From assembly GCA_032718475.1 (NCBI GenBank), contig JAUCBJ010000097.1, forward strand, positions 32,889-96,888: a DNA stretch of 64,000 nt. Direction: 5' to 3'. The DNA is from Nemertoderma westbladi. Lineage: Eukaryota > Animalia > Xenacoelomorpha. The notes under the pieces were generated by a model that worked only from the letters and a program-made list of their open reading frames with translations, had not been told where the DNA came from and ran no database searches. This document shows, piece by piece, positions 7,460-36,628 of the stretch. Position 1 is the stretch's first letter, and the number at the start of each line of letters is the position of its first letter. A program made the translations under genes and the position numbers.

Positions 7460-7650
7460 GTAGGTTATTAACAATCAGTTATTATGTCTCAGAAATAGCA
7501 CTCTAGCAAGTATATTTGTCGTTAATGTCGAGTAGTACTTTGCACCAAATTAATTCACACAATTAATTGAATTGTATACTTATTATTTTAAACAAAGCTG
7601 GCAAACAGTGGAGCAAACTGGAGGCGACCTAACGGCTCCTCGTTCGATAG

Positions 7651-10600
7651 CTGCTACCCGAAGGTAGGGGTGGGCGCTACTCCTATCTGCTACCCGAAGG
7701 TAGGGGTGGGCGCTACTTCTATCTGCTACCCGAAGGTAGGGGTGGGCGCTACTCCTATCTGCTACCCGAAGGTAGGGGTGGGCGCTACTCCTATCTGGTA
7801 CCCGAGGGTAGGGGTGGGAGCTACTCCTATCTGGCACCCGAAGGTAGGGGTGGGCGCCACTCCTATCTGCTACCCGAAGGTGGGGGAGGGCGCTACTCCT
7901 ATCTGCTACCCGAAGGTAGGGGTGGGCGCTACTCCTATCTGCTACCATAAGGTAGGGGTGGACGCTACTCCTATCTGCTACCCGAAGGTAAGGGATGGCG
8001 CTACTTCTATCTGCTACCCGAAGGTAGGGGTGGGCGCTACTCCTGTCTGCTACCATAAGGTAGGGGTGGGCGCTATTCCTATCTGCTACCCGAAAGTAGG
8101 GGAGGGCGCTACTCCTATCTGCTACCCAAAGGTAGGGGTCGGCGCTACTCCTATCTGCTACCCGAAGGTAGGGGTGGAAGCTACTCCTATCTGGTACCCG
8201 AGGGTAGGGGTGGGCGCTACTCCTATCTGCTACCCGAAGGTAGGGGTGGGCGCTACTCCTATCTGCTACCCGAAGGTAGGGGTGGGCGCTACTCCTATCT
8301 GCTACCCGAAGGTAGGGGTGAGCGCTACTCCTATCTGGTACCCGAGGGTAGGGGTGGGCGCTACTCCTATCTGCTACCCGAAGGTAGGGGTGGGCGCTAC
8401 TCCTATCTGGTACCCGAGGGTAGGGGTGGGCGCTACTCCTATCTGCTACCCGAAGGTAGGGGTGGGCGCTACTCCTATCTGCTACCCGAAGGTGGGGGAG
8501 GGCGCTACTCATATCTGCTACCCGAAGGTAGGGGTGGGCGCTACTCCTATCTACTACCCGAATGTAGGGATGGGCGCTACTCCTATCTGCTAACCGAAGG
8601 TAGGGGTGGGCGCTACTCCTATCTGGTACCCGAGGGTAGGGGTGGGCGCTACTCCTATCTGGTACCCGAATGTAGGGATGGGCGCTACTCCTATCTGCTA
8701 TCCGAAGGTTGGGGTGGACGCTACTCCTATCTGGTACCCGAGGGTAGGGGTGAGCGCTACTCCTATCTGCTACCCGAAGGTATGGGAGGGCGCTACTCCT
8801 ATCTGCTACCCGAAGGTAGGGGTGGGCGCTACTCCTATCTGGTACCCGAAGGTAGGGGTAAGCGCTACTCATATCTGCTACCCGAAAGTAGGGGTGGGCG
8901 CTACTCCTATCTGCTACCCGAAGGTAGGGGTGGGCGCTACTCCTATCTGCTACCCGAAGGTAGGGTTCTGCGCTACTCCTATCTGCTACCCGAAGGTAGG
9001 GGTGGGCGCTACTCCTATCTGCTACCCGAAGGTAGGGGTGGGCGCTACTCCTATCTGCTACCCGAATGTAGGGATGGGCGCTACTCCTATCTGCTACCCG
9101 AGAGTAAGAGTGGGAGCTACTCCTATCTGCTACCCGAATGTAGGGGTGGGCGCTACTCCTATCTGCTACCCGAAGGTAGGGGTGGGCGCTACTCCTATCT
9201 GCAACCCGAAGGTAGGGGTGGGCGCTACTCCTATCTGCTACCCGAAGGTATGGGTGGGCGCTACTCCTATCTGCTACCCGAATGTAGGGGTGGGCGCTAC
9301 TCCTATCTGCTACCATAAGGTAGGGGTGGGCGCTACTCCTATCTGCTACCATAAGGTAGGGGTGGGCGCTACTCCTATCTGCTACCCGAAGGTAGGGGTG
9401 GGCGCTACTCCTATCTGCTACCCGAAGGTAGGGGTGGGCGCTATTCCTATGTGCTACCCGAAGGTAGGGATGGGCGCTACTCCTACCTGCTACCCGAAGG
9501 TAGGGGTGGGAGCTACTCATATCTGCTACCCGAAGGTAGGGGTGGGCGCTACTCCTATATGCTACCCGAAGGTAGGGGTGGGCGCTACTCCTATCTGCTA
9601 CCATAAGGTTGGGGTCGACGCTACTCCTATCTGCTACCCGAAGGTAGGGGAGGGCGCCACTCCTATCTGCTACCCGAAGGTGGGGGAGGGCGCTACTCCT
9701 ATCTGCTACCCGAAGGTAGGGGTGGGGCTACTCCTATCTGCTACCATAAGGTAGGGGTGGACGCTACTCCTATCTGCTACCCGAAGGTAAGGGATGGCGC
9801 TACTTCTATCTGCTACCCGAAGGTAGGGGTGGGCGCTACTCCTGTCTGCTACCATAAGGTAGGGGTGGGCGCTATTCCTATCTGCTACCCGAAAGTAGGG
9901 GAGGGCGCTACTCCTATCTGCTACCCAAAGGTAGGGGTCGGCGCTACTCCTATCTGCCACCCGAAGGTAGGGGTGGAAGCTATTCCTATCTGCTACCCGA
10001 AGGTAGGGGTGGGCGCTACTCCTATCTGCTACCCGAAGGTAGGGGTGAGCGCTACTCCTATCTGGTACCCGAGGGTAGGGGTGGGCGCTACTCCTATCTG
10101 CTACCCGAAGGTAGGGGTGGGCGCTACTCCTATCTGGTACCCGAGGGTAGGGGTGGGCGCTACTCCTATCTGCTACCCGAAGGTAGGGGTGGGCGCTACT
10201 CCTATTTGCTACCCGAAGGTGGGGGAGGGCGCTACTCCTATCTGCTACCCTGAAGGTAGGGGTGGGCGCTACTCCTATCTACTACCCGAATGTAGGGATG
10301 GGCGCTACTCCTATCTGCTAACCGAAGGTAGGGGTGGGCGCTACTCCTATCTGCTATCCGAAGGTTGGGGTGGACGCTACTCCTATCTGCTACCCGAAGG
10401 TAGGGGTAAGCGCTACTCATATCTGCTACCCGAAAGTAGGGGTGGGCGCTACTCCTATCTGCTACCCGAAGGTAGGGGTGGGCGCTACTCCTATCTGCTA
10501 CCCGAAGGTAGGGTTCTGCGCTACTCCTATCTGCTACCCGAAGGTAGGGGTGGGCGCTACTCCTATCTGCTACCCGAAGGTAGGGGTGGGCGCTACTCCT

Positions 10601-11462
10601 ATCTGCTACCCGAATGTAGGGATGGGCGCTACTCCTATCTGCTACCCGAGAGTAAGAGTGGGAGCTACTCCTATCTGCTACCCGAGGGTAGGTGTGGGCG
10701 CTACTCCTATCTGCTCGGAAGGTAGGGGTGGGCGCTACTCCTATCTGCTACCCGAAGGTAGGGGTGGGCGCTACTCCTATCTGCTACCCGAATGTAGGGG
10801 TGGGCGCTACTCCTATCTGCTACCCGAAGGTAGGGGTGGGCGCTACTCCTATCTGCAACCCGAAGGTAGGGGTGGGCGCTACTCCTATCTGCTACCCGAA
10901 GGTATGGGTGGGCGCTACTCCTATCTGCTACCCGAATGTAGGGGTGGGCGCTACTCCTATCTGCTAACCGAAGGTAGGGGTGGGCGCTACTCCTATCTGC
11001 TATCCGAAGGTTGGGGTGGACGCTACTCCTATCTGCTACCCGAAGGTAGGGGTAAGCGCTACTCATATCTGCTACCCGAAAGTAGGGGTGGACGCTACTC
11101 CTATCTGGTACCCGAGGGTAGGGGTGGGCGCTACTCCTATCTGCTACCCGAAGGTAGGGGAGGGCGCTACTCCCTGCTACCCGAAGGTAGGGGTGGGCGC
11201 TACTCCTATCTGCTACCCGAAGGTAGGGGTGGGCGCTACTCCTATCTGCTACCCGAAGATAGGGGTGGGCGCTACCCCTACCTGCTCCCCGAAGGTAGGG
11301 GTGGGCGCTACTCCTATCTACTACACGAATGTAGGGATGGACGCTACTCCTATCTGCTACCCGAAGGTAGGGGTGGACGCTACTCCTATCTGGTACCCGA
11401 GGGTAGGGGTGGGAGCTACTCCTATCTGGTACCCGAGGGTAGGGGTGGGCGCTACTCCTATA
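7651..11462. repeat. 36-bp minisatellite, ~105 copies
   Basis: Unit CTGCTACCCGAAGGTAGGGGTGGGCGCTACTCCTAT. Confidence 0.97.
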
Positions 11463-11607
11463 CCAAGTTTTGCTCCCAGTAATTCAACTGGTAATCATTT
11501 TATAGACCCCAGCGGATGAAAGGCTGATTGGATCCAGGCTGGGTTCGAACCTGCAACCAATAGATTGTAATCTCGGCGCTTAACCAACTGAGCTAGCTTG
11601 TCCGCCC
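11463..11607 (-). mobile_element. tRNA-derived SINE head and central domain
   Basis: Minus-strand A box TAGCTCAGTTGG and B box GGTTCGAACCC, then TCAGCCTTTCATCCGCTGGGGTCTATAAAATGATTACCAG, resembling a conserved SINE central domain. Confidence 0.75.
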
Positions 11608-11675: not shown

Positions 11676-11773
11676 TGTGGAAATGGAGGTTGTCTTGTGG
11701 AATTAGCGCAGCAACTTGCAATTATTATGATAGGAAAACAATTCGTAAACAACTGCCAAGAAGTTTTTGTGCC
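11676..11773 (+). CDS. ANO: Anoctamin exon
   Basis: TTTCAG acceptor; CGNGGCLVELAQQLAIIMIGKQFVNNCQEVFV(P); GTGAGT donor. Confidence 0.95.
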
Positions 11774-11810
11774 GTGAGTAATAATTGGTACTCTATACAC
11801 TAAGACTTAT

Positions 11811-12982
11811 TGTAAAAGCTTTTGTGGGATAACTGATTCGTTTGCCTTGCTAACCAGTTCCCCCCAGTCGCTAGAATACTCTAAAAAGGGATCTATAACT
11901 CGAATAGCGCAAGCTACCGGCTGATTGGCTGATTCGCTGTGCGAAGGGATCTGGGCTACGTTTGATTGTCCAACCAGCTTGGGAAAGTATCTGCCTATAG
12001 GATTTGAGTTGATTTTGATTTCGACCTATCACAGATCTGCTGAACTGAATTTTCCTATCTTTATGCTCTTTCTCTGTGTTGGGTGGAAGCCTTTGTAAAT
12101 AAGGTTATTCTTATCAGTTTTCAGTGTTGTTGGTCTTTCTTTCCTAAGCCAGGAGAGAACGGCTTGTAAATATTTTGTGCTTTTCTGTTTTAGTCTAACA
12201 CTAGTAGGCTTAATTATAAAGGGCATATATCCGTTATCAAACTGATGCACAACACTTAATATCAAACTAATGAACTTAACGCACACTGAATTACTGTGCA
12301 TACTTTTATATTGTTATACTGCTATTTACTGTCAGTTCTTCATAATATGGTTGATGAATTATTATATTTGGAATAACGATAAATAACCCCGAAACCCAAT
12401 ATTCTTGATATACCGAAGGTAAGAGAGAAAGGTTACATATAACGATTGTGACTTATGTTAAAGTGGTTTGAAGTGAATCTAATGTTATTTGATAGACCCT
12501 ACATGAGTCGGTCCGTGTTCCTTTTATATATAACTAAAATCAGTGAAGATCGGCAGATCAGTGTGCAGTATTGTGCAGCATCGTGTATGAGTGATACTGA
12601 TAACGAAGCATTTCCTAAAGAATGCGCCATATATGTGAATTATAACTAAGCCATATCGTTGTGAGTAGTTTAAGTCATAACTCTGTTTATATAGATAGAG
12701 CGCCACGTCCTAAAGGAACTGTTAATATTCCCCGAAGGTGAATAATATTGTCAGAGATTATATAATACTGTCAGTCGAATAATACATTAGGCTTACATAG
12801 CAATAAAATTTAAGCCGTCGAACCCAATCTCCCGGGTATATCCAGCGGGTGAATGATCGCGCACTGATTGGTTTCGACTAGTGTAGTGAATTAAATACTT
12901 GTCATAGACTAAAGGTGATTTATTATCTAGAAGACATCCTAATTTGGCGGGTTAAACTGCCAAAGGTCTAAAAGCGCGAACA
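11811..12982 (+). repeat. 5' LTR of BEL element
   Basis: Direct repeat of 36629-37800; three substitutions seen by eye. Confidence 0.97.
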
Positions 12983-13004
12983 ATAACGGATATAGCTTCT
13001 TTAT
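12983..13004 (+). promoter_or_regulatory. Non-tRNA primer-binding site, complementary to LTR 12216-12237
   Basis: ATAACGGATATAGCTTCTTTAT has no TGG; pairs with ATAAAGGGCATATATCCGTTAT (12 perfect pairs adjacent to the LTR end; 18/22 Watson-Crick plus 2 G-U). Confidence 0.75.
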
Positions 13005-13049
13005 TGCAGTAAGCAATAAAGTTGAAAGTACCGGTCAACCGGTAAACCT

Positions 13050-13180
13050 GAACGGTACTTCAGTAGGTCAGTAGGCCCAACCGCCAGAACCGGTACTGCC
13101 GTAGGTCAGTAGGCCCAACTGCCAGAACCGGTACTTCTGTAGGTCCGTAGGCCTAACTGTCCTAACCGGTACTTCCGTAT
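13050..13180 (+). repeat. ~39-bp tandem repeats in BEL 5' leader
   Basis: aaccggtact..gtaggtc.gtaggcc.aac repeated 3-4 times. Confidence 0.8.
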
Positions 13181-13355
13181 AAGTACACTAGTATTATTCG
13201 ATTTGATTGTTGCATACCGGTAGGCTGTTTAAGGGATTAGGGATTGATCACCTCTTATTACTTTATATGGTTTACTTATTTCTGTCAAGTTTTATTTATT
13301 TGTAGGCCAGTATTGAACAGAAGGCGTGTAAGCCTGATCAGATTGTACAGACAAT

Positions 13356-13925: not shown

Positions 13926-15235
13926 CAGAGTTTATGCGATTATTCGCAACATTCATTCCCCAAGTTTGTTCCTACAGTAATTGTGTTTGTTATACATACC
14001 GCTATAGTTAAATTAACCCCGGTACTACACGGGCTGCTTGGCGTAGGTAAAGACTGGTGATTTTGTGCATCGGTCACTCCAGCAGATGCCGTGGTTCTTT
14101 TAGCTGTTCAAGTATATTTAACTACAGATTATATGTTATACAAGTACTCGTACCTAATTTAGGGTTTAGTGTACAGTGCTTTCCGAAAGTAATTAGTAGG
14201 CATTATATTTGTGTTGTAAAGTGGTTGATAGGCACGTTCGATTAGCTCTATTAACTTCTAGGTAGGAACACTCCGTGATACATAACGTAGTACCTGTAGC
14301 GATACGGCTATAGGTCGTCAGGCGGTGGTATTTTCCTATCTGGACAACGCAGTGTATTTACTACTACGTATTATTTTCAAATACTGCAGTACCCTGTCCG
14401 TTGTAATAACCAGATTTCTAACCCTTTGTTAGGCTGGTTTGTAGACTTCTTGTAAAATTACCCTGAAAATTCGTATTTTGTGTTTTTGAAAATTTTTGTG
14501 TTTATTTAGAGATTGTAATCTCACCCGAATTGTACGTAATTTGTAGTATTAAGTAACTTAGGTAAATTAGTATTATTTGTTTTAGTGTCCTATAAGTAAC
14601 ACTTCACTGAAAGCGCACCGCTTTGTGTAGTGATTACTCCCCAGAAATAATAACATTTATTTCAAACATTGACTAAACCCATTGAACGGGTATATATATA
14701 TTATAAATCAAATCTAACGATTTATAAATAGTAGGCCTACCATACAACCATTAGGTCTCAATATCAGTTGGATTACTGCTCAAATAACGGTAATAAAGTA
14801 AGTAAAGTAACCAAGTAACCTTAAAGTTCAGAAATTCAATTATTCTAAAATAATTGATATACCGGTATTTACGATAGGCCTATTATAATATTTATATTTT
14901 GTGCTGAAATCATACCGGTATTCTGTAATTAATTCAGTTAATAATTATACTTATATATACACTACAAACTGTCAGCTGTATACCGGTATTCCAGATAGGC
15001 CTATTATATATTTATATATATTTGTGCTAAAATTATACCGGTATTCTGTGATAAACCTAGTCTGTAATAATAGTTATATATACTATAAGCATACCGGTAT
15101 TCTAATATATTATATATATCAAGCTGCACTGAGTAGCAGTACCGGTAATTAATTACTAGGCTAGCAGTTAATACTGAATTACTAGACTTGCTCAGACTGT
15201 AATACAGCAGTAGACATTCAACTGTATACATAAAC

Positions 15236-17956
15236 ATGTCTGATACTAAGCAGAACCTGTCAGACAGTTTATTAGATGTAACTATCTGCGACTCAGATAG
15301 AGGCGTAGAACCGTCTAGTCGTAAGTTCAGTTCACCTCCCACTGTGAGGAAAGTCATCCCTCCAGTAGTAATAAAAGAACCTAGGCTGGTTCAACATCGT
15401 AGGTCTATCATAGGCACTCGAGCTCAGGTCAAACGGGACCAAGAAGCAGCGGAACAGCAACAACCCGCGAGCCAAGAACTTACTTCTCAACGGCCCGATA
15501 GCTCCAGTAGTGAAGATACGGTAGAACTGACACCCGAACGCGGAGCAAGGATGATGGATGAGGCTTATTCAGATCCCCTTCTCATCCTTCCTGCAGCCGT
15601 ACTCACTAGGTTATTGATCGCTGTGGAAGAACACCAGATCGATTGGGCGAGAAGCCAGCGTTCAACTAGAGATAGTTATGCGGGATACACGAGTGAAGAA
15701 CTGAAGTCTATTGTCGAGTCGCAATGGAACTTCCCCGGACCCGGACTCCCGTTTGATTTATCAGAAGCTGCCTGGGAAGACATACACCGGATGGGAGTAG
15801 CCAAAGAAACCATAGATCCCGCTGTGTGGAAGAGGTCCGCAGCCGGATACGCACAGGGATTCTTCAGCTCTATAGAGCGATTAAAAGAACAACTGTTTCA
15901 TCAACCTCAAGGACCTCAAGAGCAGGGATTGCTGCTTTATCAAGTTAGAGAAAGAATTCTACGAATCAGGCTAATCTTATCGGCCTTTGAGGAGGCTTCT
16001 AAACGAAGACAAGACACGTCGTTGCAAGTCGCCGTAAAGACTTGGTTTCAAAGGGTGAATCTCCAGGTTCAAGGAACAGCTCAGTGGAAAGCTCAGCTAG
16101 AGGAGCGATCAACCCATGGAGAATCAACAGACGCTACTTTTTCCCAAGTGGAAAGTGAAGCGACGGCAGAGAAACCGCATAAGAGGGATGCCATTGATAT
16201 CTATCTGTCAGACTATCAACGTTTTTTAGGTGATGACGAGTTGAGGAGAAGGTTAGAGGGGCTTACCCCTAATAGTGAAGGAACCAAGCTTGTGCTGGAT
16301 GCCATCGATGTGGAAATGAGAGCTGCGAACCAGGCTAAATTTGATGAACAACTCCGCATCACACGAGTCCAGGAGGAGCAAATCAAGAAAAAACGTATAG
16401 AAGACAGAAAGACAGTGGCAGTGACAGCAGCAGTGGCAGCGGCAGAAGCAGAAAGAAAAGCGGCAGTGGCAGCGGCAGAGGCAGAGGCAGAAGCCGAAAG
16501 AAAGGCGGCAGAGGCAGAGGCAGAAGCCGAAAGAAAAGTGGCAGCGGCAGCAGCCGAAGCAGAAAGAAAGGCGGCTGTAACAGCGGTCGAGGCAGTAGCA
16601 GAAGCAGAACGGAGAGCTTCCGAAGAAACCACCCAATTAGAATTGGAAAACATTCAGGAGAATCAAGACTGCATAAATAAACAGTTAACAGCTAGTAATA
16701 TGCAGATGATGAATCAATCTACTCCCAAAAGACAGGGATATACATCATCTGAGGAAGGCGATACCACCGATACTGAAGGCAAAGGAAATAGATCTCGTCT
16801 AAGCAGACGTAAAAGAACATTCCACTGTCAGAAATTGCCTGATTTGCCTCCAGCTGTTAGAAGGCAACTAAATAACACCAACTTAGGTAGTACAGAGCCC
16901 ACAGACCAAATAATTAAAATAGAAAGACTCCCTACTATAGTAGATGAGCCTGAAATAATTAGGCCTGTTCTTGAAATCACCCCTTCGGTGATAGACACAC
17001 CTTTGCTCCCTGAAACTACCTCTAAATTCCCTCTGCATAGCACTAAGCTACCTGTGCCCCGTAGAACTGCCCAGGGGACAGTTCAGGTCCTGGACCCCGA
17101 GCGAAATATTCATAATTTGTCGCCCGTTGTCCCTCGTCCGCCCGCTACAACGTTGGCGACTCCCGCTTCGGCGGTCGAATGGGTGGACGAGAGACGGCGG
17201 GGGATGGATATCCTGCTCGGGCAGATGCAGGAGACTGTCCAGCAATTCAAGGGCACAGTAAGGGAAAGTAGGCTAGAGTTGCAAGAAGTGCAGCAAAGTA
17301 TCGCGCTAGAACGCGATAAATTAGTAAATACTCAAAAGGGTATACTGCCACCCTCTGTAACAATGTGTCAACCTGTTAGGTCTGAAGTATCTCATGCGCA
17401 AGGTGTGGAGCCTACACGCATATATACTGCTAGCGAAGTAGAAACTCCTATAGTGAACCCTATTAAGGGTAATTATAGACCTGTTGATAATGACATTCCC
17501 TGCAGAACTGATCATAATCCGAGAAATTTATATACCGATAACTCGATATTAAATAACACGATGGCCCAAGAAAGTTTTACGCGTCAAATGGCTAGAACCG
17601 AAGCCCGGCAAGCGGTAAAGGTGGGAGAGATCGTCAAGTTCAATGGAGATGAGATGAAATGGTTACCTTTTAATGTATATTACAAAGATAACATACAGAA
17701 CTCTGTACTATCTAATGGAGAAAAACTTAGATACCTCATCGAGTGCTTGGAAGGATCTCCCAAGTTAATGGCGTTAAAGTTTATTGGACATCCAGACGGA
17801 TTAAGACAAGTTTGGGACACACTAAACATCAGGTATGGTAATAGGAATAATATCGCTAAGTATTTATATGCAAAATTAGTAGCGCCCAGAAAGTTCATCA
17901 GCAGTGGGATAATAGAGTTTTCCGATGAGATTCAAGAGATCTGTAGACAATTAGAT
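15236..17956 (+). CDS. gag: BEL gag-pol, part 1 (Gag N-terminus, Ala/Glu coiled coil, DUF1759-like)
   Basis: KFNGDEMKWLPF...LSNGEKLRYLIECLEG is typical of Pao Gag; interrupted by the Gypsy at 17957. Confidence 0.88.
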
Positions 17957-19164
17957 TGTGGAAGCGCTATCGGCGCCCGGTCCCGGATCCACGGCCACGC
18001 ACTATCCCGCTCGAGGGGTGAGCTGGAGAAGACTGAAGTGAAACTAGCTGCAGTATATCAGTATATTGTGTATTGAGTTGAGATACATGAATAACAAATA
18101 ATGATATGATACAATCAGACAATGAAACTAATAACGAACTACCTACAAAACATGACTGACAACCCTACACCGGTAAGTCATCTCAATAACTAAACTGAAT
18201 GATAACTGCTGACTGCGCCCTGCCCCCAGGACTATATCCCTGACAGCTACCGTACAACCAGCTGTTCTGTTCACACCCTAGGATACTACTATATCATACC
18301 TACTTAACCTATACAATACATACTAATCAGTCCAATAATACACCATCCCATAATACAATATCACATCCCCCCTTCTTAAAAAAAAAACTCGCCCACGAGT
18401 TTCTAGAACGCACAAACTACAAACCCCAAGTCTAATGACTACATCGACAAGTAAAGTCTACCTCAACGGCAGTATAGATACTGTATATGAAGCACGATAC
18501 CAACAATACATTCAACTAGCCTAAGGCCAATAATATCTAAATCGAAATTTCGTACTGCATGTATCGTAAGCCAGTATGACTAAAGAATAACACGTACAAC
18601 TCAATGAGTAACCAAATAACACTATATCAAGCATAATTGCAATCTATAAATCGCACCACCGTAAGTAACCGACCATAGTACAATCCATAAAATGTGTCAC
18701 TGCCACAATAAATCAAGGCTATATAAGTAAATAATTAATATGTGTATCTATCACATGAAAATGTATCCATACAGTATCTATCATAAACATGTATCCATCC
18801 ATACAGTATCTATCTATCCGTATCTTATGTAATAATAATACGTAATGACGTAACAAAAATATACAAAAAAATATATATGTTGGAGTTATGTACATAAGGT
18901 AAATAATAATACATACAGAATAGAGAATACTCTACAAAAGGTACATAACTGAGGCACAAAATATCTCGTGGGCGAATAACGGGTGAGAGCCGAGCAATGG
19001 AACGGAATTAAAAAAAATCACAATATCTAAATAATTCAGGATAACAATTTTTTTTTCCAAACAAAAGTTATTCATTGTTAATAAATGCAATTTATCTATG
19101 TAGCCATGGTAACCAGCAAACAGTCAAGTCACATCGACTACGTCTCTATAATTTGCGTCAACGG

Positions 19165-22100
19165 TCAACAGTCGCTATCGTCACCGTCGTAGACGTCCGC
19201 ACTGTCGTTCCCCCTACCTGTATCATCTCCCGTGGAGTTACTTTCTTCCCTATAGTATGGCTTTAAGTCCTTCACATTTACAATAATAAGTCGAGAACGT
19301 GGATTTGGTTTTCCCGATTTTCCCAACAGTTTAATGGCATAACTTGATTTACCAACCTGATCAACAATAGCATAAGGACCCCTAAACCTGAAGCTCAGCT
19401 TCGTATTCTTACCTTTGGTCGTCCTATCATAGTATAATACAGACTGCCCCTTAGTGTAGGTTCGAATGTTACTGCGTTGGCGCTTCCCCAGCTTACCATC
19501 GTGGTATTGTTTCTGTTTCACCTGTGTAAGCCTAAGAGCTTCCCTGGCTATCCCATGGGCCCGCTCCAAACGAAACCTTAATTCGTCTGCGAATGTTGCT
19601 TCATCTGCTAGCAAGCTGTACGGCCGGGCTATCTGCGTGTCTACTTGAGTTGTCGCCTGTCGCCCATACATTAAAGAGAAAGGAGTTTCCTTAAGTGTAC
19701 TCTGAATCGAAGTATTATAATTAAACGCAACAGCGGGAATAAACTCGTCCCAATTATGCGGGTTGGTAGCTGTCAACGATAACATGTTTACAGCTAACTG
19801 GTTAATGCGTTCTGTAAGACCATTGCAAGCTGGGTGGTATACCGACGTAAATACGGAAACAATACCAAACATTGCAGTTAATTCCTTGAATAAATTAGAC
19901 GTGAAATTACTACTCCTATCGCTTAATAAACTCTCGGGGGCGCCGTATATAAGAAAAATACCATCCACTAAAGCCCTGGCAACGGTAGCGGCTTCTTCAT
20001 TTGGTAACGGGAGGAGGGAAGCGTAACGAGTAAGATGATCAACTACTGTAAGGATAACCTTGTTACCTTTAGATGACGTCTGGAAGCCTTTAACGATATC
20101 AATTGAAAGGCGTTGCAAGACACGTTCAACGACTGGGAGAGGTGACAGTGGTTGGGTCTGAGGGACGCCCTTCCTACGCTGGCATGGGTCACATTCACGA
20201 ATGTGCTGCTTAACATTATCCTTTATACCTACCCAATAATACTTCATATGGATAGCACCTACCGTTTTATCAATACCCATGTGAGGCTTTTCATCGTGAC
20301 ACATGGATATAATTTGTTGCCTTAGTAACTTAGGAACTACAATCTGTACCTTCGATTTACCGTTACTTGTTGATAAATGGCAGAGTATATTGTCAACCAT
20401 AACATATTGTGCTCTAAATTTGAGCATGTAACGATACTCGTGTAGCGATTTGCGCACATCGGCATCGGCTATTGTAACAGCTGTGTCCAGTAATGTATCA
20501 ATCATAGGCTGTAAGTTATTGTCTTCTGATTGTAACTTACGCAAGGCAGTCAATGTGCAGTACTGTTGGCCGCCCGGAAGTGTCCAATTATTATTATTGT
20601 CATTATTGATAATGTATGTGACGTCACTATCGTGGTTGGGTCTGTCTGGGGAACTTAGAATGTCACATGGATTAGGTTTTGGCGGCTGCACGCCATTGTC
20701 TAGGTCCACCTCAACAGCGTTTGGTCTATCGCTATCATTATGTAGGTCTAAATTGGCTAGTCCTATCAAGCAATAATTATCTGACGAGACTGGGTCATTA
20801 TGCATAGGGGGAAGTAACGTATCCATGGCAACCGGTTCATTAGAAACGGTTTCGTCTCGTTGGTTGCCAGGGGTTACCTGTAATGGTATTCTAGAAAGAC
20901 AATCAGCGCGGTTAAGTCGGCCTGGCCTGTAAACAAAATTGAAATTAAATTCAGACAATTTAACGGCCCATCGCTGCAAACGCCCTGGAAGTTCGAGTTT
21001 GGTCTGTAAACAACTGAGTGGTTTATGATCCGAAACTAACGTAAATGCGCGGCCAATGAGGTAAAACCTGTGTTTCTGCATTGCCCAGACCACGGCTAAA
21101 GCCTCTAGCTCCGTAATGGACCACTTTCTCTCAGCGTTGCTTAGCGACCTCGATGAGTAAGCGATTACGCCCGAATCCTGATATAAAACAGCTCCTAAAG
21201 CTATACCGCTAGCGTCAGTCTCTAAGTAAAACGGCTGGTCGAAATCAGGGTGTTCTAGAATAGGGTTATTAATTAGGCGTTTCTTAAGGAATGTAAAAGC
21301 CTGCTCACAATCGCTTGTCCATACGAACTCTTGGTTTTTCCTTAACAACACGTTCAAGGGAGCTACAATCTTACCATAATCCTTAATAAATTTCCTATAG
21401 TAACCACATAATCCTAGGAAGCTATAAAGTTGCTTTGCATTGGCCGGTCGCGGAAAATCAACCATGGCTTGGACCTTATCCTTGTCCATATGCTGCCCTG
21501 AGCTATCTATCACATGGCCTAGGAATTTTACAGATGTCGCCCCGAACATGCACTTACTTGGTTTGAGCTTCAAGCCGAGATCGATAATTCTACGTAATAG
21601 AATGATAATAGTACTTACGTGGGTGTCCCATTCCCGGGTATACAGTATGACGTCATCGAGATAAACGAGAACGTACTCGATACCATGCAACGCTAATTGC
21701 ATAAGATTCTGGCAGCCAGAAGGGCTGGACTGGAGGCCAAAGGGCATTCTAACAAATTCGTAATGGCCACTATGTGTTACGAAAGCGGTTTTATGTGTAT
21801 CTTCAGCGGCTAAGGGTACCTGCCAAAACATCGATTTAAAATCGAGTGTCGTAAAATATTTGGGCCGTGCTGTGCCAATTTCCGACAACATTTCGTCTAT
21901 GCGCGGCAAAGGCCAAAATTGTGGCACAGCCGCAGCGTTAAGGCGGCGAAGATCAACGCAAAACCGCCACTTACCATCTTTTTTTTTACTTAATATTATT
22001 GGTGCCCCCCACTCACTGTTGCTAGGTTGAATAACACCTGCGGCTAACATATTGCCTACCTGTTTGTCAATCTCTTTCCTAAGCCCCATAGGTACTGTAC

Positions 22101-24633
22101 GTGGTCTCGTGTAAAAGGGCTTAGCCTCTGGTTTAAGTGGGATTCTATGTTCTAATAGGTCAGTCTTACCTATATCGCAATCTCCAAAGGAAAACGCCGC
22201 AGCATGTTTAGTAGCAATATCTATTAACTGGGTCCTCTGCTGAGGCTCCAAATGATCTAACGGTAATTCCTTAGCTAGATACTCCCTTTGTATGTCGCGC
22301 TCTACCGAGTCTTGTTTAACTTCTTTATTGAAGCTATCATTATCTACTGTACAATATAATGCAATTTTCTGATTGCGATATATTGTAACCGGGTAGTTAT
22401 TCGGATTTAATAACTGCACTGGGACCTTACCTGATCCGTCCAATGGGTTAGAAACTACACTTCGCGCAGTTAGATACGAACCCCTTGATTTTACTAACGG
22501 CTCTATCATTACCGACTCTGCTAATAATCCATTATCATACAATTTCCCTGCCAGTCTCACCTGTGTCCCTGCTGGGATCGTAGTCTTATCTATCGCAGAA
22601 ACAAAACAACAAAAAGGGTTTGTACTCTTACCGTTACCAGCGTTGCTGGGCGTGTTTAACCTCGCAAAGTACACTCTTTCCTGGTTGGTTAGAACCAAAC
22701 ACCTGTCTAGAAAATCTATGGACGCACAAGCAATACTTACGAAATCTAACCCTAACAGAAACGGGGGAATCCCAACACAAGATAAGTCTGCTACGTGGAC
22801 CTCGAGGGAAACCGAAAAATTGCTTGTAACTGATATTTGTAAAGTAGCCAATCCCATAGGTTTAACCTGTCCCCCTATACCGCTAATAGGTGGTAAATCA
22901 AGGGCACGCAACTGCACACCGGATGGGAGTTTCCTAACATCTATCAGGGAATAATGTGAGCCACTATCTAAAAATGCTTCACCATCCTCGTTTTCGATTC
23001 TTACTGGAAAATGCATGTCTAGTTTATTGGACACTACAGCTGTGTACATTGAAGCTGGATTGGGATTTAAATCCCGGTTTGTGTTAGGATTGGGATTAGG
23101 GTTAAAATTAGGGTTAGGGTTGTAAGTAGGGTTAGGGTTGTAATTCGGGTTAGAGTATTGCCTGTTAGGATTTGAGTTGATATTCGTACGTGGTCTAGTG
23201 CAATTTCGGCTATAATGTCCCGGTTCCCCACAGTTGTAGCAAGTAACCGAACTGTTGCTACTGTAGTTATTAGATCGGGGTGTAAACCCTCTGTTACTGC
23301 TGTCCCGTGAGTTGCCCGTACCGCTAGTACCAGTCCACCTTGCGTTGGGGTCAAACCAGTTATTCTGTCCCCGACCGTGATTATCGCGGCTATAATTGTT
23401 ATTGTAATTGGCGCGTGGGTAGCTACTGGTATTTGGTGTCTGATTGGACAGTTTCAGTTGTAAGTCCTTCAGTTGTCTTTCTAGATAACTCATATCAGTC
23501 TGTTTTGGGGACTGTTCTGAAAAACTAACCTTGCTGTATGAAGTTTGTCTGGGACTGGGAGGCGGTTCCCTGGGCCTATTACTCTGGTCCCTACGATCGC
23601 CCAATTCACAGCCAAATATACCATTATTTTCCTGTCTTAAATAAAGTTCCTCGCGCCTAGCACGGTGAACTGCCTCCCCAAAATTGCGCGGTTCTGTTAA
23701 CCGTATACTTCTCGCTAATTCAGGGGAAATCCCTCTATAAAATATTGGCAAAAGTAAAAGTTCCCGTTGCTCAGTGCTCATTCCCGGAAAAGCTTGTACC
23801 CCTAAACTAGTTATAATATCGGAAAATTCAGAAATAGTTTCCCCCACCTTCTGTTTACGATCTAGTAATTCATTGTACACAAAACTAGTATCCTGGGGGC
23901 AAAAACGGGCACGTAAAATATCACGAATTGCATCATAGTTTTCCTGTTCATGTTCAGCCAGTTCATCAAGGACACGTGCAGCCCTACCGGTTAAATAAAC
24001 AGGCACAATCTTACCGAGAGCGTCGTTCTTCCACCCCCTGAGTCTGGCGATCCGTTGCACCGATCTGTTCCATGCCTCGAAATCACCAGAACCATCAAAG
24101 CAGTCCGGTTCCTTGCGGATGCTTTCCATAGTCGGATCTCGTTGTCGAGTAGTCGACGGAGCAACTGTTGGAGAATCCCGTCGTCGAGTAGTCGGCGAAG
24201 CAACCGTTGGAGAATCTCGTCGTCGAGTAGTCGGCGGAGCAACTGTTGGAGAATCTCGTCGTCGAGTAGTCGGCGGAGCAACCGTCAGAGAATCCCGTCG
24301 TCTAGTTGTCGGCGGAGCAACCGTCAGAGAATCCCGTCGTCTAGTAGTCGGCGGAGCAACCGTCAGAGAATCACGTCGTCGAGTAGTCGGCGGCCCTGAA
24401 ATTGATCGGTTCAAGGATCCCCGTTGCCGTCGCGATCCGTGTAACGAGGGCGAGAGAGAACTACGACGCAACTTTGAAACAGCTCCCGATGACTTGTAGA
24501 GGAACGAATGTTCGTCCGTGCTGTCTGGATGAGGAGAACCAGAAGCGGAACGCAGTTGCTGCCGATAGGAAGGCTTACCCGTGGGAAAGTTAACGCTTCC
24601 AGCTTGTTTGCGCTCGGGTCGACGCGCAGGCAT
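19165..24633 (-). CDS. gag-pol: Gypsy single-ORF gag-pol (1822 aa)
   Basis: CYNCGEPGHYSRNC, FLDSGS, WRFCVDLR, MPFGL, YLDD, ETDAS, HHCC plus D,D,E integrase in PR-RT-RH-IN order. Confidence 0.96.
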   Translation of the reverse strand: MPARRPERKQAGSVNFPTGKPSYRQQLRSASGSPHPDSTDEHSFLYKSSGAVSKLRRSSLSPSLHGSRRQRGSLNRSISGPPTTRRRDSLTVAPPTTRRRDSLTVAPPTTRRRDSLTVAPPTTRRRDSPTVAPPTTRRRDSPTVASPTTRRRDSPTVAPSTTRQRDPTMESIRKEPDCFDGSGDFEAWNRSVQRIARLRGWKNDALGKIVPVYLTGRAARVLDELAEHEQENYDAIRDILRARFCPQDTSFVYNELLDRKQKVGETISEFSDIITSLGVQAFPGMSTEQRELLLLPIFYRGISPELARSIRLTEPRNFGEAVHRARREELYLRQENNGIFGCELGDRRDQSNRPREPPPSPRQTSYSKVSFSEQSPKQTDMSYLERQLKDLQLKLSNQTPNTSSYPRANYNNNYSRDNHGRGQNNWFDPNARWTGTSGTGNSRDSSNRGFTPRSNNYSSNSSVTCYNCGEPGHYSRNCTRPRTNINSNPNRQYSNPNYNPNPTYNPNPNFNPNPNPNTNRDLNPNPASMYTAVVSNKLDMHFPVRIENEDGEAFLDSGSHYSLIDVRKLPSGVQLRALDLPPISGIGGQVKPMGLATLQISVTSNFSVSLEVHVADLSCVGIPPFLLGLDFVSIACASIDFLDRCLVLTNQERVYFARLNTPSNAGNGKSTNPFCCFVSAIDKTTIPAGTQVRLAGKLYDNGLLAESVMIEPLVKSRGSYLTARSVVSNPLDGSGKVPVQLLNPNNYPVTIYRNQKIALYCTVDNDSFNKEVKQDSVERDIQREYLAKELPLDHLEPQQRTQLIDIATKHAAAFSFGDCDIGKTDLLEHRIPLKPEAKPFYTRPRTVPMGLRKEIDKQVGNMLAAGVIQPSNSEWGAPIILSKKKDGKWRFCVDLRRLNAAAVPQFWPLPRIDEMLSEIGTARPKYFTTLDFKSMFWQVPLAAEDTHKTAFVTHSGHYEFVRMPFGLQSSPSGCQNLMQLALHGIEYVLVYLDDVILYTREWDTHVSTIIILLRRIIDLGLKLKPSKCMFGATSVKFLGHVIDSSGQHMDKDKVQAMVDFPRPANAKQLYSFLGLCGYYRKFIKDYGKIVAPLNVLLRKNQEFVWTSDCEQAFTFLKKRLINNPILEHPDFDQPFYLETDASGIALGAVLYQDSGVIAYSSRSLSNAERKWSITELEALAVVWAMQKHRFYLIGRAFTLVSDHKPLSCLQTKLELPGRLQRWAVKLSEFNFNFVYRPGRLNRADCLSRIPLQVTPGNQRDETVSNEPVAMDTLLPPMHNDPVSSDNYCLIGLANLDLHNDSDRPNAVEVDLDNGVQPPKPNPCDILSSPDRPNHDSDVTYIINNDNNNNWTLPGGQQYCTLTALRKLQSEDNNLQPMIDTLLDTAVTIADADVRKSLHEYRYMLKFRAQYVMVDNILCHLSTSNGKSKVQIVVPKLLRQQIISMCHDEKPHMGIDKTVGAIHMKYYWVGIKDNVKQHIRECDPCQRRKGVPQTQPLSPLPVVERVLQRLSIDIVKGFQTSSKGNKVILTVVDHLTRYASLLPLPNEEAATVARALVDGIFLIYGAPESLLSDRSSNFTSNLFKELTAMFGIVSVFTSVYHPACNGLTERINQLAVNMLSLTATNPHNWDEFIPAVAFNYNTSIQSTLKETPFSLMYGRQATTQVDTQIARPYSLLADEATFADELRFRLERAHGIAREALRLTQVKQKQYHDGKLGKRQRSNIRTYTKGQSVLYYDRTTKGKNTKLSFRFRGPYAIVDQVGKSSYAIKLLGKSGKPNPRSRLIIVNVKDLKPYYREESNSTGDDTGRGNDSADVYDGDDSDC

Positions 24634-24802
24634 ACAGTGGAATAATCGTCAGAGACCCGCCACCCACAGTCTGACTGCCTGATGCAGTGATGGGTACGGT
24701 AGTTGGTCGTGGTAGCGATAGCCTGGTAGGCCAGACAGAGTTAGAGTACCTGTTGCCGGTAGCAGGTAGCGCGGTAGGCCTGTCAGACTGTCAGTTTCTC
24801 TT

Positions 24803-24820
24803 CTCCCGGACAAGCCCCCA
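24803..24820 (-). promoter_or_regulatory. tRNA-Pro primer-binding site of Gypsy element
   Basis: Minus strand TGGGGGCTTGTCCGGGAG versus canonical tRNA-Pro PBS TGGGGGCTCGTCCGGGAT. Confidence 0.88.
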
Positions 24821-25232
24821 TGTGGAAGCGCTATCGGCGCCCGGTCCCGGATCCACGGCCACGCACTATCCCGCTCGAGGGGTGAGCTGGAGAAGACTGA
24901 AGTGAAACTAGCTGCAGTATATCAGTATATTGTGTATTGAGTTGAGATACATGAATAACAAATAATGATATGATACAATCAGACAATGAAACTAATAACG
25001 AACTACCTACAAAACATGACTGACAACCCTACACCGGTAAGTCATCTCAATAACTAAACTGAATGATAACTGCTGACTGCGCCCTGCCCCCAGGACTATA
25101 TCCCTGACAGCTACCGTACAACCAGCTGTTCTGTTCACACCCTAGGATACTACTATATCATACCTACTTAACCTATACAATACATACTAATCAGTCCAAT
25201 AATACACCATCCCATAATACAATATCACAGAT

Positions 25233-28200
25233 TGGTTAGGTAAGTCTCATGAATACCAAAGTTCTATGGTCATTGGAGCTGTGGCTTCTACTTTACCGAA
25301 AGGTGGGGTAGGCACACGCTGGGATAAGAAAGTACTATATATGATGGAACAACAACGACGAGACCCTACCATGGCTGATCTCATGTCATTCTTGGATGGA
25401 GAAGTGAAATTGCAACTCCTCAAGCAGTCCCGAGAGAAGACACCGGAAAACAAGGTAAGTGAAAAACCCGTCTCTAGGAGAAAGGTAACACCAGTGTGTT
25501 ATACAGACGACGGCGAAAGCCAGACTTCTCCAGGAGAAGATAGCGGGAAAGACACTGATAGATCTTATTATGTCAATAAAATGCCTAAAGATCAGGTAAG
25601 TAAATTCAAGTCTCGAGCAAATGACAGGAGAGAACAGGTAAGAAAAACTCCTCCCACGTCTCCCAAGAGAATTCAGGTGAGAAAGCCCGAAGAAAAGGCA
25701 AGTGTACACAATGTGACTCAGAATAAGGTAAGTAACATCAAACCGAAATGTGCGCTGTGTGACGGGACCCACCATTTGAATAGGTGTGATGAATTTCTAA
25801 AGAAATCATTAACGGAGAGACGCGAAGTCATGTGGGATAAGCGGTTATGTTATAATTGCCTCAGACAAGGAGACCAACGGCGAACCTGTTTCTCTGACAT
25901 AAGGTGTGCAAAGTGTGGTGCGAAACATCATATCTTGTTGCACGCTGAATTCGATCGAAATAGTCCGAATCAGGTAAGTGATTCCGAGCTACATGTCCAA
26001 TTCAGTGATGTGAACGACACTGATCAATCTGAGATGGAAGGATTCTATACAGACGAGTTCTCCGACGAAAACGAATCCTGTTACATGATAAATACCGCAG
26101 TGTATCGAGCACTCACATATGAAAAGGATACAGACAACGACTTCACTCTAACTACTTCTGAGCGACAACCATCTTGGAAAGAGCCATCTTCCAATGTAGG
26201 GATCCGAGAGTTTCCTGTGGTGCAAGTAAGGGTTCACGGACCTAAGGGGAGTTATGTAGTGAACGCCCTCCTGGACTCCGGCAGCACAGGAACATTCATC
26301 GACAAAGAGCTAGCCGAAGATATATTTGCTGGACAACCCAAGTTCCAAACTAAGCTCAACATGTCCGGCATTATGCAAGTTTGGAAATCTACAATAACAG
26401 CTGATTATTATGTAGGCGCGTTGTCCACCCCACAAGACGAACTAGGAGAACATAGCATAAGGTCAGTGAAAATGGTGGCTATAAAGAACTTCGCTACTAC
26501 TCAAGCAGACCTTTATAATTGGGACGAGGATGAGAGCATCCAACATCTTAACATACCTCGATTCCAGACTGATTATCCTGGAGTGCAAATGCTCATCGGC
26601 CAAAACGCGCATGAGGCGCTGGAGACATTGGAAAAACGGCCTGCTCAACCGCAGCCACTACAGACCTATGCGGTAAGAACTAGAGTAGGTTGGTACTTTA
26701 CTGGCCCTTCCCGTAGAACACTCAAAGAAAGACTACCGCAAGAGCGCGTCTGCCAGGTGAGTGAATGGGAAGATGATACTAGTGAAGGAGACGATTTAAC
26801 TGAGGGAACCCCATACTCCTCAGATAACGACGACATTCACCAGCTTTTTGATGAGCAGAATACCATCGACCTCCTTAAGGAAAACGATGCTTGGCAAAAC
26901 CAAGTGAACTTATGTCAACTTCTTTATCCAACAGAACGGGAAGCTTATAACGACGAGTTAAATGACGTCATTGAGCGTCATAATGCCAAGACTCGGGATG
27001 AACATGCCGTACGATTCTTTACGCAAGAGGCGGTAGAGCCCAATTCCTACGATAAAGCCTTGTCGGTGGAAGAGGAAAGGGCCAAGCAGATCCAAGAGAC
27101 AACTACACGTTTCCTCAAAGATCAAGGTAGGTATGAAGTCGGTCTACCTTTCCGCAAGAAAGAACCGAAGTTCATCAATAACAGACCTTTGGCGGAAAAA
27201 AGAATCGCGCAACTCCATCGACGCCTTACGGCTAATTCTTCAGCTAAAGCAATGTATCAAACACAGCTGGAAAAATTTATTAGTAAGGGATACGCGGAGA
27301 GAGTACCGGAAGAAACACCTGTGACTGAAAGAACGTATTACTTAACTCACCATTACGTTCCTAAACCCGGTAAGCCACACGAAGTGAGAGTAGTGTTTGA
27401 TGGCTCCGCTCTTTACATGGGTCAATCCCTTAACTCTGAATTGTTACCCGGACCCAACTTGCTTCAATCTTTGTTGGGAATTCTTTTAAGATTGAGACAA
27501 TATTCGATTGCTTTCGCCTCCGATATAGAAGGCATGTTCTTACAAGTCAAGGTGTTGGATAGGGATCGGGATAGTCTACGATTTCTGTGGTGGCCCGAAG
27601 GAGACCTCAACCAGAAACCGGTGGAGTACTGGATGACCATCCAGGCCTTTGGGATAATCTCAAGCCCTTCCAACGCCTGTTCGGTAGTGCGTACCACTGC
27701 AGAGGACAACCGAGAGGCATTCTCTAAGGAAGTGATCGACAACATCAAGAGAGACATATATATGGACGACAATCTGAAGTCCCTCCCATCAGTTGAGGAA
27801 GCCATTGAGGTCGCTAAAGGAACGGTAGAGTGCTTAAAAAGAGGTGGGTTTCGATTAACGAAATTCACCAGCAACTCCCGTGAGTTTCTGGAGTCGATCC
27901 CTGCGGAAGATCGAGGAGCGAAAGATCTCGATTTAATCAAAGATGATCTGCCAGAAACCAAGACACTAGGCTTGAAATGGGACACAGAGCGAGATATCCT
28001 GTTTTTCCAGCTAAAACAGCGAGATAATCCAGTTCGAACCAAACGGATTTGCTTAAGTATACTGAGCACTTATTTCGATCCATTGGGATTTATTAGCCCA
28101 GTTATATTGATTGCTCATAGTTTGGTACAACAAATGTGGCTTGAAAACCACTCATGGGACGATCTACTTAAGGGAGAATTATTGAAGAAGTGGATGGAAT

Positions 28201-30644
28201 GGGAAGATTCTCTGCCGGCTATCGAGGATTTTATAATTTCCCGTTCATATTTTGGTCATGTTCTCCCTACGTATTCCTATCAACTCCATGTGTTTGGAGA
28301 CGCCAGCGATATGGGAATAGGTATAGTAGCCTACCTAAGAGTGGAAACTCCGGATGGAATCAAAGTCGCCTTGGTTACTTCTAAGGCATTAATCAACAAC
28401 AAGTTGAAAGTTCCTCGAGCGGAGTTAAAGGCGGCTCTATACGCTACAGCCATCGGCCGGAATGTAATGGAACAGATTGACTATCCATTAGAGAAAACTG
28501 TCTATTGGACCAACGCTTTACTCGTGTTAGAGTATATCACCAATGAAGTCTGTCAGTTCAGCGTCTTCGTTACCAACAGAGTAGCCATCATACTTAGTCG
28601 CACGACGATGGATCAATGGAGACATTGTCCCGGAACGATTAATCCAGCAGACATCGCTTCCAGGGGAGCGACTCCAAAGGAATTGGTAAATACTCCCGAA
28701 TGGTTAGGAGGACCTGACTTTCTCTACAGAGAAGAAGAAGAATGGCCTCCCCATCTCACAATAGCAGAAATCAGACAGGCCAAGGGAGCGGAGAAAGTTA
28801 AACCCAAAACTCGAGCGAGTAAATCGAAGTTGTTTAAACCTGCGGTTGATCTATCTGTATTATTTACTTCCGGAGAGGATGCTTTGGATCAGAAACCCAC
28901 CGCCACGGATAAAGAAGTCTTGGAAATCCGTGACAAGGATTGGAAATCTGGAATACCAGATGTCGCGCAAGGACACTCACCTCTCTTGCAGAGAGCGATA
29001 CGTCACTACAGTTCCTGGAATCGGCTCTGTAAAGCCGTCACCTATTTAAAACGATGTTTTCATCATCGTTACTCCGGGACAAAGACCAATAGTGATGATG
29101 CTCCATCAACATCTGCACGAGTCCATGTTGTTAAAGACCTTCCCCAATACAAGATATCCGACAGGTTTCTAAAGGAGAAGATCAGTTACCAGGAGCATGA
29201 TGAAACCAACAAACAGATGCTGAGACTCCTACAATGCTATGAGGATCCCGATAAGTATTTCCTGTTGTTAAGAAATCCGCAGATGCGCTTAAGGGATCGT
29301 TTCTCTAGTACCATGATAGATGGGTTAATACGTGTTGGAGGCAGGCTAACCAACGCCCCATTATCCTTTGACACTAAGTTTCCCATCCTCATTAGAAATC
29401 TTGACATACAAATCAAGATAATTGTAGATGTTCATAGCAAACTGTATCATGCTGGAAGAGAATGAGTTCTGAGCGAAATTCAAACTCGCTACTATTTTTA
29501 TAAACCCCGTAGGGCTCTGAACCAAGTTCTTAGGAACTGCATACCCTGTAGGAAAGCATTCAGTAGGCCTTTAACACAGCGAGAGGCAGAATTACCTAGG
29601 GAAAGAGTAAGCTTCTATGAACCACCCTTTACTAATACCGGTGTGGATTTATTTGGCCCTATTGAAGCATATCGTGCCCGGACTATAGTCAAGAGATGGT
29701 GTGTCATTTTCGTTTGTATGACTTGTAGAGCTATCCATCTCGATATGGTAAACGATCTATCCACCAACAGCTTCGTGTTGAGTTTACGACGACAGATCGC
29801 TCGCTTCGGAACCAGTAACACGATGAGATCGGATAAGGGAACGAACTTCATTGGCGCCAACAACGAAATTCAAGCTTACGTAAAGGACTGGAACAAAAGA
29901 CAGGTGGACGATCAGCTAAGGATAACAGCGTCTAGCTGGACCTTCAACGCCGCCGACGCCCCTTGGTGGGGAGGAAGTTGGGAGAGATTGATTAGGAGCG
30001 TGAAGACTGCGTTCCACTTTATTGTGCCTTGTCGCGCTTATCTCACCGACGAACTATTGCGGACGTTAATGGAGGAAATCGCCGCTTATCTCAATGAAAG
30101 ACCGCTTATGCCAGTCTCTTCAAGTCCTGATTCCCTGGAAGCGCTAACACCCGCGCACTTTCTACTGAAGAAACCCGTAGCCATGCTCCCACGATCGGAG
30201 ATCACAGACGGAGACGAGTACTGCCGTCGAACCTGGCAACTTATGCAGTTGCTATCCCGTCGTTTCGCTGACCATTTCGAGAAACATTACCTGCCCACTC
30301 TACAATTTCGAACTAAGTGGTTTGCACAGCAAGAAAACGTCAGCGCTGGAGACATGGTGCTTATTGTGGACCCCGATCTCCCACGTAAGCGATGGCAAAC
30401 AGGACGTATCATCGAGACTTATATCTCGAGCGATGGTTTGGTGCGATCAGTAGAGCTCGTCGTCATGCGGCGGAACTTTAAGAAACCAGGGATAGTCTTT
30501 GAGACTCAACAGCTCAATCGCCCAGTGGGTCGTTTATGTTTACTGGAAAGAGACAGAGAGCTCTCCGGAAACTATGGAAGGCAAGAAATTCTTCCCACGA
30601 CCACTTCCCTAATCCAACCGACATCTAGGGACTCCCCAACTTAA
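25233..30644 (+). pseudogene. pol: BEL gag-pol, part 2 (Zn knuckles, PR, RT, RNase H, IN) with premature stop at 29463-29465
   Basis: In frame with part 1 after removing the insert (RQLD|WLGK); LLDSGST, VRVVFDGS, YMDD, VFGDAS, PRAEL, GVDLFGP, SDKGTNF, GGSWERL; AGRE*VLSE is probably TGG>TGA. Confidence 0.92.
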
Positions 30645-36620: not shown

Positions 36621-36628
36621 GGGAGCGG
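36621..36628 (+). promoter_or_regulatory. Polypurine tract of BEL element
   Basis: GGGAGCGG directly before the TG of the 3' LTR. Confidence 0.7.

Follow-up and report, generated by a model that had tools for sequence, protein, structure and literature searches.

The element and its surroundings

The window analysed here, a stretch of 64,000 nucleotides from Nemertoderma westbladi, contains a 26-kb LTR retrotransposon that starts 37 bp into the intron after an anoctamin exon (11676-11773, + strand; PF04547, E 3e-7) and lies in the same orientation as that gene. Comparison of the window with itself delimits two LTRs that differ at 3 positions over 1172 bp (99.7% alike), and a second LTR element, on the opposite strand, interrupts the gag of the first. 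The parts of the two elements are as follows.

11806-11810 (left) and 37801-37805 (right), + strand: 5-bp target-site duplication, the same 5 letters on both sides
11811-12982, + strand: 5' LTR, 1172 bp, TG...CA ends
15236-17956, + strand: part of gag (DUF1759), broken by the nested Ty3/gypsy element
17957-25229, - strand: nested Ty3/gypsy element with identical 409-bp LTRs and a single 1827-aa frame, apparently intact
25230-29465, + strand: rest of gag, protease, reverse transcriptase and RNase H (Peptidase_A17), with an in-frame stop at 29463-29465
29466-30644, + strand: remainder of the integrase (DUF5641), after the in-frame stop
32297-36550, + strand: extra ORF of 1417 aa, between integrase and 3' LTR
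36621-36628, + strand: polypurine tract, a purine run just before the 3' LTR
36629-37800, + strand: 3' LTR, 1172 bp, with a second copy of the candidate primer segment at 37044-37055

The Pol of the outer element matches PF03564, PF05380 and PF18701 in a gypsy-like order, which places it in the BEL/Pao class, and 319 homologues show the same BEL/Pao domains. The direct TG...CA LTRs, the target duplication and the polypurine tract are likewise the structural marks of that group. Between the 5' LTR and gag runs a leader of 2.2 kb. All 31 aligned relatives have an acidic residue at an RNase H position near 28512 where this copy has a non-acidic one. The copy is a young insertion yet disabled, its damage comprising the nested element, the in-frame stop and this RNase H change.

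Several further repeats are worth recording. Only a 3-bp target duplication, shorter than usual, is evident for the nested gypsy element within the BEL gag. ACCGGT palindromes occur in short repeats as two clusters of six, at both ends of the leader (13030-13221 and 14861-15146), and possibly represent dimerisation or packaging signals. A 22-bp satellite of about 17 kb, with more than 760 copies (38001-54900), begins 200 bp past the 3' LTR. A GC-rich tandem array at 7586-11483, with units of about 36 bp, gives repeated weak PRY matches on translation and is probably a minisatellite. Inverted repeat copies at 1784-2849 and 59481-60278, 96-97% alike and carrying a DUF6451 frame, are likely LINE remnants.

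The site behind the 5' LTR pairs with the LTR itself

The 5' LTR terminates in ...GCGAACA, and the preliminary description of this DNA, made from the letters alone, had noted that no TGG follows; the nearest one downstream is only at 13268. What follows instead is a segment whose complement lies within the LTR.

12983-12998, + strand: candidate primer-binding site without TGG; perfect core 12983-12994
12221-12237, + strand: candidate self-primer; perfect core 12226-12237, with its 3' end at 12237
12999-13021, + strand: 9-bp perfect hairpin (12999-13007 with 13013-13021, by folding), directly 3' of the primer site

Read as its reverse complement, the core 12983-12994 is identical to 12226-12237 and to the 3' LTR copy at 37044-37055. 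Pairing halts at the LTR edge, the next position on that side being a mismatch, so that the 12 consecutive perfect pairs ending exactly at the LTR boundary are as originally described. The chance of about 1e-4 given with them was also about right: at least 12 anchored pairs arose in only 2 of 20,000 dinucleotide shuffles of the LTR, and the Markov expectation for an anchored 12-pair match is 2.6e-4. When internal positions were used as mock primer sites, 12 pairs were reached in just 2 of 23,616, one of which is the real site. Duplex energy alone is less striking, since 55 of 944 internal 22-mers bind the LTR equally well; an energy as good as that of the real LTR was found in 1 of 1000 shuffled LTRs. 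The nested gypsy element served as a negative control inside the window, with an ordinary TGG-type site, presumably of tRNA-Pro type, and without a match to its own LTR (162 of 200 shuffles do as well).

The duplex was drawn at the outset as 22 nt long with a 2-nt internal loop, and here revision is needed. The lowest-energy register retains the 12-pair core, replaces the loop with a bulged A at 12225, and continues with C-G, G-C, G-U and G-U, for a predicted 16 pairs in all. The distal 6 pairs probably fall away, with a pairing probability of 0.00-0.03, because 12999-13007 prefers the hairpin with 13013-13021. Whether the helix forms also depends on where the RNA begins (folding with 5 RNA end points per start for starts from 12150 to 12226). 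Its probability is 0.76-1.0 for a start at 12192 and 1.0 for starts at 12216 or 12226; it is less steady for starts at 12205 (0.31-0.98) and 12180 (0.20-0.99), mostly lost at 12150 (0.05-0.35), and absent for starts at 12114 and 11811. The loop between the paired segments measures 745 nt.

The site thus has what is expected of the Tf1 type, namely a position at the LTR edge and complementarity to its own LTR, with tRNA 3' ends excluded by the missing TGG; the 18-nt site complementary to a tRNA 3' end that the ICTV profile gives for BEL/Pao is absent. We file the element under BEL/Pao because of its proteins, and it departs from the group in the primer-site trait. ARAGORN finds no tRNA genes in the window, and Rfam over 11811-13300 returns 4 matches, all far below their cut-offs. 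Two primer-site motifs gave no match in the paper supplements searched.

A conserved island in the LTR and variation within the family

Evidence on the family comes from the public contigs of 4 runs, X1, X3, X4 and X5 (the stretch is present in 6 of the 7 listed runs, in each case as contigs); depth in these contigs is no measure of copy number and cannot display transcription starts. The family is very abundant and variable in them. The features of the LTR that bear on the matter are these.

12188-12240, + strand: island conserved in the family, with a depth peak and loose contig ends at both edges, in 4 runs
12190-12195, + strand: initiator-like TTAGTC, a candidate start near 12192 (motif scan, putative function)
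12192-12210, + strand: 6-bp hairpin predicted by folding, at the 5' end of the island
12215-12220, + strand: TATAAA, the sole one in the LTR
12802-12807, + strand: AATAAA, candidate polyadenylation signal, the sole one in the LTR

The island lies in the otherwise variable left part of the LTR. Summed depth in X1 is 434,727 at 12209-12212 versus 4,379 at 12241-12244, and the shape is the same in 50-nt bins. Just ahead of 12188, contigs diverge in each of the 4 runs, and many do so at 12236-12243; the sequence after 12240 is the least conserved. The 3' edge of the island coincides with the predicted primer end, and on that ground the island counts in favour of self-priming; a promoter could be an alternative cause of it. 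The letters TTAGTC, read here against what we take to be the initiator consensus, can also be read as a splice acceptor ending at 12193. With the TATAAA as a working TATA box, transcription would begin near 12245, past the 3' end of the paired segment; a 1-nt deletion at 12218, within this motif, is found in family contigs.

Among the variants listed is a second form of the primer site, with A>T at 12983 and C>A at 12987. In X1 and X3, each change accounts for about half of the depth (for T at 12983, 186,037 of 386,940 and 127,079 of 294,163, respectively), and in X4 the two stand on one contig. Half of the family deviates at 2 of the first 5 letters of the site, which is hard to reconcile with one fixed host primer. 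The LTR letters that would match the variant site, at 12237 and 12233, were written down before the segment was inspected. The predicted A at 12237 is the first loose letter behind 12236 in 8 contigs of X1 and 1 of X4, and in X4 the two forms stand in similar proportions, 15 v 8.5 at one site and 16.6 v 5.7 at the other. This two-sided change is a single position read from alignment ends, with no contig spanning both sites and a chance of about 1/3 of meeting an A. Position 12233 has no row in the variant table; the depth in X1 steps there from 200,979 to 72,535, and X3 has no step. In X5 the deepest contig stops at 12236, yet T at 12983 amounts to 0 of 383.9, which is discordant or uninformative. 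Of the compensatory covariation looked for in the family, one of the two predicted changes is seen (12983/12237), unphased, and 12233/12987 is without a variant-table row. The matched change, foreseen before inspection, lends self-priming weak backing.

A strong splice donor (12419-12425) lies in the LTR 3' of the candidate primer segment, with acceptors at 12694, 12930 and 13305; it could give rise to a shorter mRNA or keep the 5' polyadenylation signal from being used. An intron from 12419 to 12930 would shorten the loop, but we have not adopted it, since it would be lost from progeny LTRs.

Distant BEL/Pao families

A profile search of metagenome contigs yielded 78 BEL/Pao loci. Comparison of 5' with 3' LTRs fixed the LTR end, and the bases after it, at 15 of them, which form 10 families (several come from related assemblies, and hosts are fewer than families); 8 further loci gave an LTR start only. 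In the reverse transcriptase piece, these families are 41-47% identical to the window element and 47-64% identical among themselves. Viral contigs contained no relative.

A strict first test found contiguous self-matches in few of the 10 families. The test was widened after looking, so as to admit GT-AG introns, G-U pairs and offsets of up to 4 nt, with one LTR end reset (L021), and the controls were given the same search space as the relatives. On these terms, all 10 families show 11-15 pairs to their own LTR, 0-4 nt from the LTR end (matched in 0-3 of 200 shuffles each), and the own LTR outscores every other family's LTR in 11 of 11 cases. In 8 of the 10, the match exists only across the exon-exon junction of a GT-AG intron of 76-186 nt within the LTR.

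Spliced-match families, with canonical splice sites: L052, L025, L042, L041, L072, L021, L013, L014/L058
Contiguous-match families, as in the window element: L056, L078

The primer site starts with TGG only in L014, where a junction match of 14 pairs is present as well. The primer end lies 67-175 nt from the LTR end in the relatives, versus 745 nt in the window element. The widened search is less kind to the window element itself, whose score of 12 is barely above that of a foreign primer site (11.5). A blind scan of the 8 start-only loci gave best matches of 8-11 pairs (one 0), not above cross-family controls of up to 12; the scan recovered 4 of 5 known cases, and two loci, L006 and L016, gave plausible junction matches. 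For the window element, a splice-junction primer was considered and rejected, the match being contiguous and no junction of canonical sites giving the complement.

Across families the match persists with wholly different letters, and complementarity kept among relatives, on which the original reading hung, is found in every distant family that could be tested. Judged from these sequences, the self-complement trait is old and lineage-wide, not special to the window copy. The suggestion of an independent origin of self-priming in BEL/Pao is accordingly only partly right: the trait did not arise in this family, since its signature recurs in relatives whose reverse transcriptase is 41-47% identical. 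The contiguous L078 and the spliced L042 have similar sites and are 64% identical in reverse transcriptase, a pair that hints at intron gain or loss. Two other loci, L028 and L074, are tandem BEL/Pao units sharing LTRs, with a period of 6.1-6.3 kb in the assembled contigs, and could be genuine arrays or circles made in assembly.

An extra ORF with a predicted exonuclease

The 1417-aa ORF has no Pfam match. Of its 30 Atlas matches, 25 fall in a PF01612 set of 3'-5' exonuclease clusters (score 0.92), and a DnaQ-type 3'-5' exonuclease domain is predicted at about 34439-35092, with three zinc-knuckle-like motifs at 35621-35830. Candidate acidic motifs ExoI-III were assigned by eye, following their usual consensus. 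The sole homologue among 1.8 billion representatives, P0121 (E 9e-8), has weak PF01612 and zinc-knuckle matches in the same layout. A single-sequence structure model of the exonuclease region was unusable (mean pLDDT 31.5), and a PDB sequence search with a two-sequence profile matched only the zinc knuckles of the homologue. Metagenome contigs contained no relatives of the ORF, a word search gave none, and P0121 had no further relatives in range.

Most LTR-to-LTR spans of the relatives, at about 6-7 kb, leave no room for such an ORF. With most relatives too short for it, the exonuclease is not needed for the general trait. Exonuclease trimming to the duplex edge would suit the long loop of the window element. 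One could go further and propose that a captured 3'-5' exonuclease trims the cut leader (or an RNA 3' end) to the duplex edge at 12237, so that the primer 3'-OH would be the work of this enzyme and not solely of RNase H, and that the family is an intron-less, long-loop offshoot of a broad, old lineage which gave up tRNA priming for primers of its own, usually built by splicing; we regard this as a speculative and improbable elaboration.

A model for priming and its alternatives

The reading that we favour, and consider fairly probable, is that in this BEL/Pao element the 5' end of the transcript itself serves as primer for reverse transcription, much as in Tf1. Transcription would start at the 5' edge of the island, near 12192, and the first 46 nt or so (small hairpin, linker and pairing segment) would fold across the 745-nt loop onto 12983-12998. 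RNase H, by analogy with Tf1, would cut the RNA after 12237, and the 3'-OH so freed could be extended by reverse transcriptase into U5 and then R. Plus-strand synthesis would copy the primer back into the primer site, rewriting the site from the LTR segment, so that the two segments would stay matched as the family drifts. Self-priming, proposed from the start for this element, has gained on several counts, all of them at the level of sequence: where the helix lies, how the segment is conserved among family members, a change matched on both sides at one position, and the 10 testable relatives. Taken in either form, from the 5' leader or from the 3' end, self-priming is in our judgement quite likely.

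The main internal objection to the 5'-leader form is that the sole TATAAA, at 12215, would put the segment upstream of the start; the loss of the helix for starts at 12150 or earlier and the 745-nt loop also count against it. If that TATAAA were the promoter, the segment would be part of U3 and present in the RNA only at 37044-37055, where a cut or trimmed end, probably of a second packaged RNA, would prime. Besides the TATAAA position, such 3'-end priming can draw on the identical segment in the 3' LTR, on the predicted 3'-5' exonuclease that the element encodes, and on two relatives (L014 and L025) whose AATAAA falls inside the primer segment or 12 nt beyond it. It nevertheless seems unlikely to us. 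The 5' edge of the island is sharp and falls at the initiator-like motif, 27 nt upstream of TATAAA, and the region past 12240, where the start would fall on this account, is the least conserved. Moreover, the AATAAA of the window element is about 565 nt behind the segment, and trimming would strip R from that RNA.

A different class of explanation accepts the pairing and denies it the role of primer. The helix might be structural, circularising, packaging or switching the RNA, and the primer might come from the host, as an RNA (a half-tRNA, for instance) that can do without TGG. The contact between the 5' and 3' parts of Ty1 RNA is a precedent for structural pairing, and conservation with matched changes is expected of any selected helix. 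The exclusion of tRNAs reaches only their 3' ends, so a host tRNA fragment might match, and half-tRNA priming exists in Ty1/copia lineages (as described in the accessible portion of PMC6317226). Against this, the pairing ends at the LTR edge here and 0-4 nt from the edge in all 10 relatives. A site for a fixed host RNA would hardly differ wholly between families and vary within one, and Rfam offers nothing near its cut-offs in 11811-13300; on balance we think this explanation, too, has a small chance of being right. That the match arose by chance in an AT-rich LTR, in a copy that has lost its true primer site to decay, is far less credible still. The copy is indeed damaged elsewhere, by the nested insertion, the in-frame stop and the altered RNase H position, the 12-mer is AT-rich, and by energy the 55 internal 22-mers noted above bind as strongly. 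Against this stand the rarity of the anchored match (2 of 20,000 shuffles), the share of the window-type site in the family (about half of the depth), the 99.7% likeness of the LTRs and the recurrence of the pattern in 10 of 10 relatives, by which the chance reading is largely refuted.

Relation to known priming systems

The nearest likeness to 5'-leader priming is with Tf1 and Tf2 of Schizosaccharomyces pombe, the wider Tf1/sushi group and Tcn1, which have no tRNA site and carry at the LTR edge an 11-12-nt site complementary to their own LTR. Tf1 pairs through its first 11 bases, and cleavage by RNase H falls between bases 11 and 12 (according to the accessible part of PMC7175516). The Tf1 group belongs to the Ty3/gypsy chromoviruses, whereas the window element has BEL/Pao domains; it is no member of that group and at most works alike. 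Tf1 also pairs its very first bases, whereas the window segment probably ends about 46 nt from the putative start and is separated from its site by a 745-nt loop; the BEL/Pao relatives differ further in building the segment across an intron, and cleavage in the window element is only proposed. Tf1/sushi elements are described as self-priming, and the same is predicted of Tcn1 and plant TAR copia (PMC6317226, as far as its text was available). The TAR lineage of plant Ty1/copia, with Houba and Osr-1, is alike in that self-priming there is predicted from sequence alone outside Tf1/sushi; it differs in belonging to the copia superfamily of plants, and the same portion of PMC6317226 does not mention splice-built primers.

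Described BEL/Pao elements share with the window element the order gag (DUF1759), protease, reverse transcriptase, RNase H (Peptidase_A17) and integrase (DUF5641), the TG...CA LTRs, the 5-bp duplication and the polypurine tract; they have a tRNA-type site, and the window element has none. The latter also far exceeds their range of 4-10 kb, measuring about 18.7 kb with the nested insertion left out. Cer7 of C. elegans is said to have been proposed to encode its own tRNA-like primer. For BEL/Pao (Belpaoviridae, Semotivirus), the ICTV profile gives an 18-nt site for tRNA-Arg or tRNA-Gly and calls replication in the group poorly understood (PMC8742986), and the BEL/Pao element Achilles has a tRNA-Tyr site (PMC4580426, accessible text). 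Full-text searches gave no report of self-priming or of splice-built primers in BEL/Pao, subscription papers being outside their scope. The main text of three BEL/Pao surveys (PMC3118150, PMC554778, PMC6238403) mentions neither tRNA nor priming, and the available portions of PMC8220671, PMC3286476, PMC13524379 and PMC3601003 contain nothing on BEL self-priming. An extra ORF of the present kind has a counterpart in Juno and Vesta of bdelloid rotifers, whose DEDDy ORF3 encodes a DnaQ-type exonuclease downstream of pol; the window ORF differs in lying in a BEL/Pao element, in its length of 1417 aa and in its zinc-knuckle-like motifs, and the accessible part of that study proposes no link between the exonuclease and priming (PMC5408684).

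If self-priming holds, the Tf1 mechanism would be placed in a third LTR superfamily, which would bear on the order in which hairpin priming and tRNA priming arose, a question posed in the available text of PMC3601003. It would also explain why annotation based on tRNAs misses the primer site in such elements, and it would free these BEL/Pao elements from tRNA-fragment silencing. As for the relatives, their splice-built primers would couple reverse transcription to the splicing machinery of the host.
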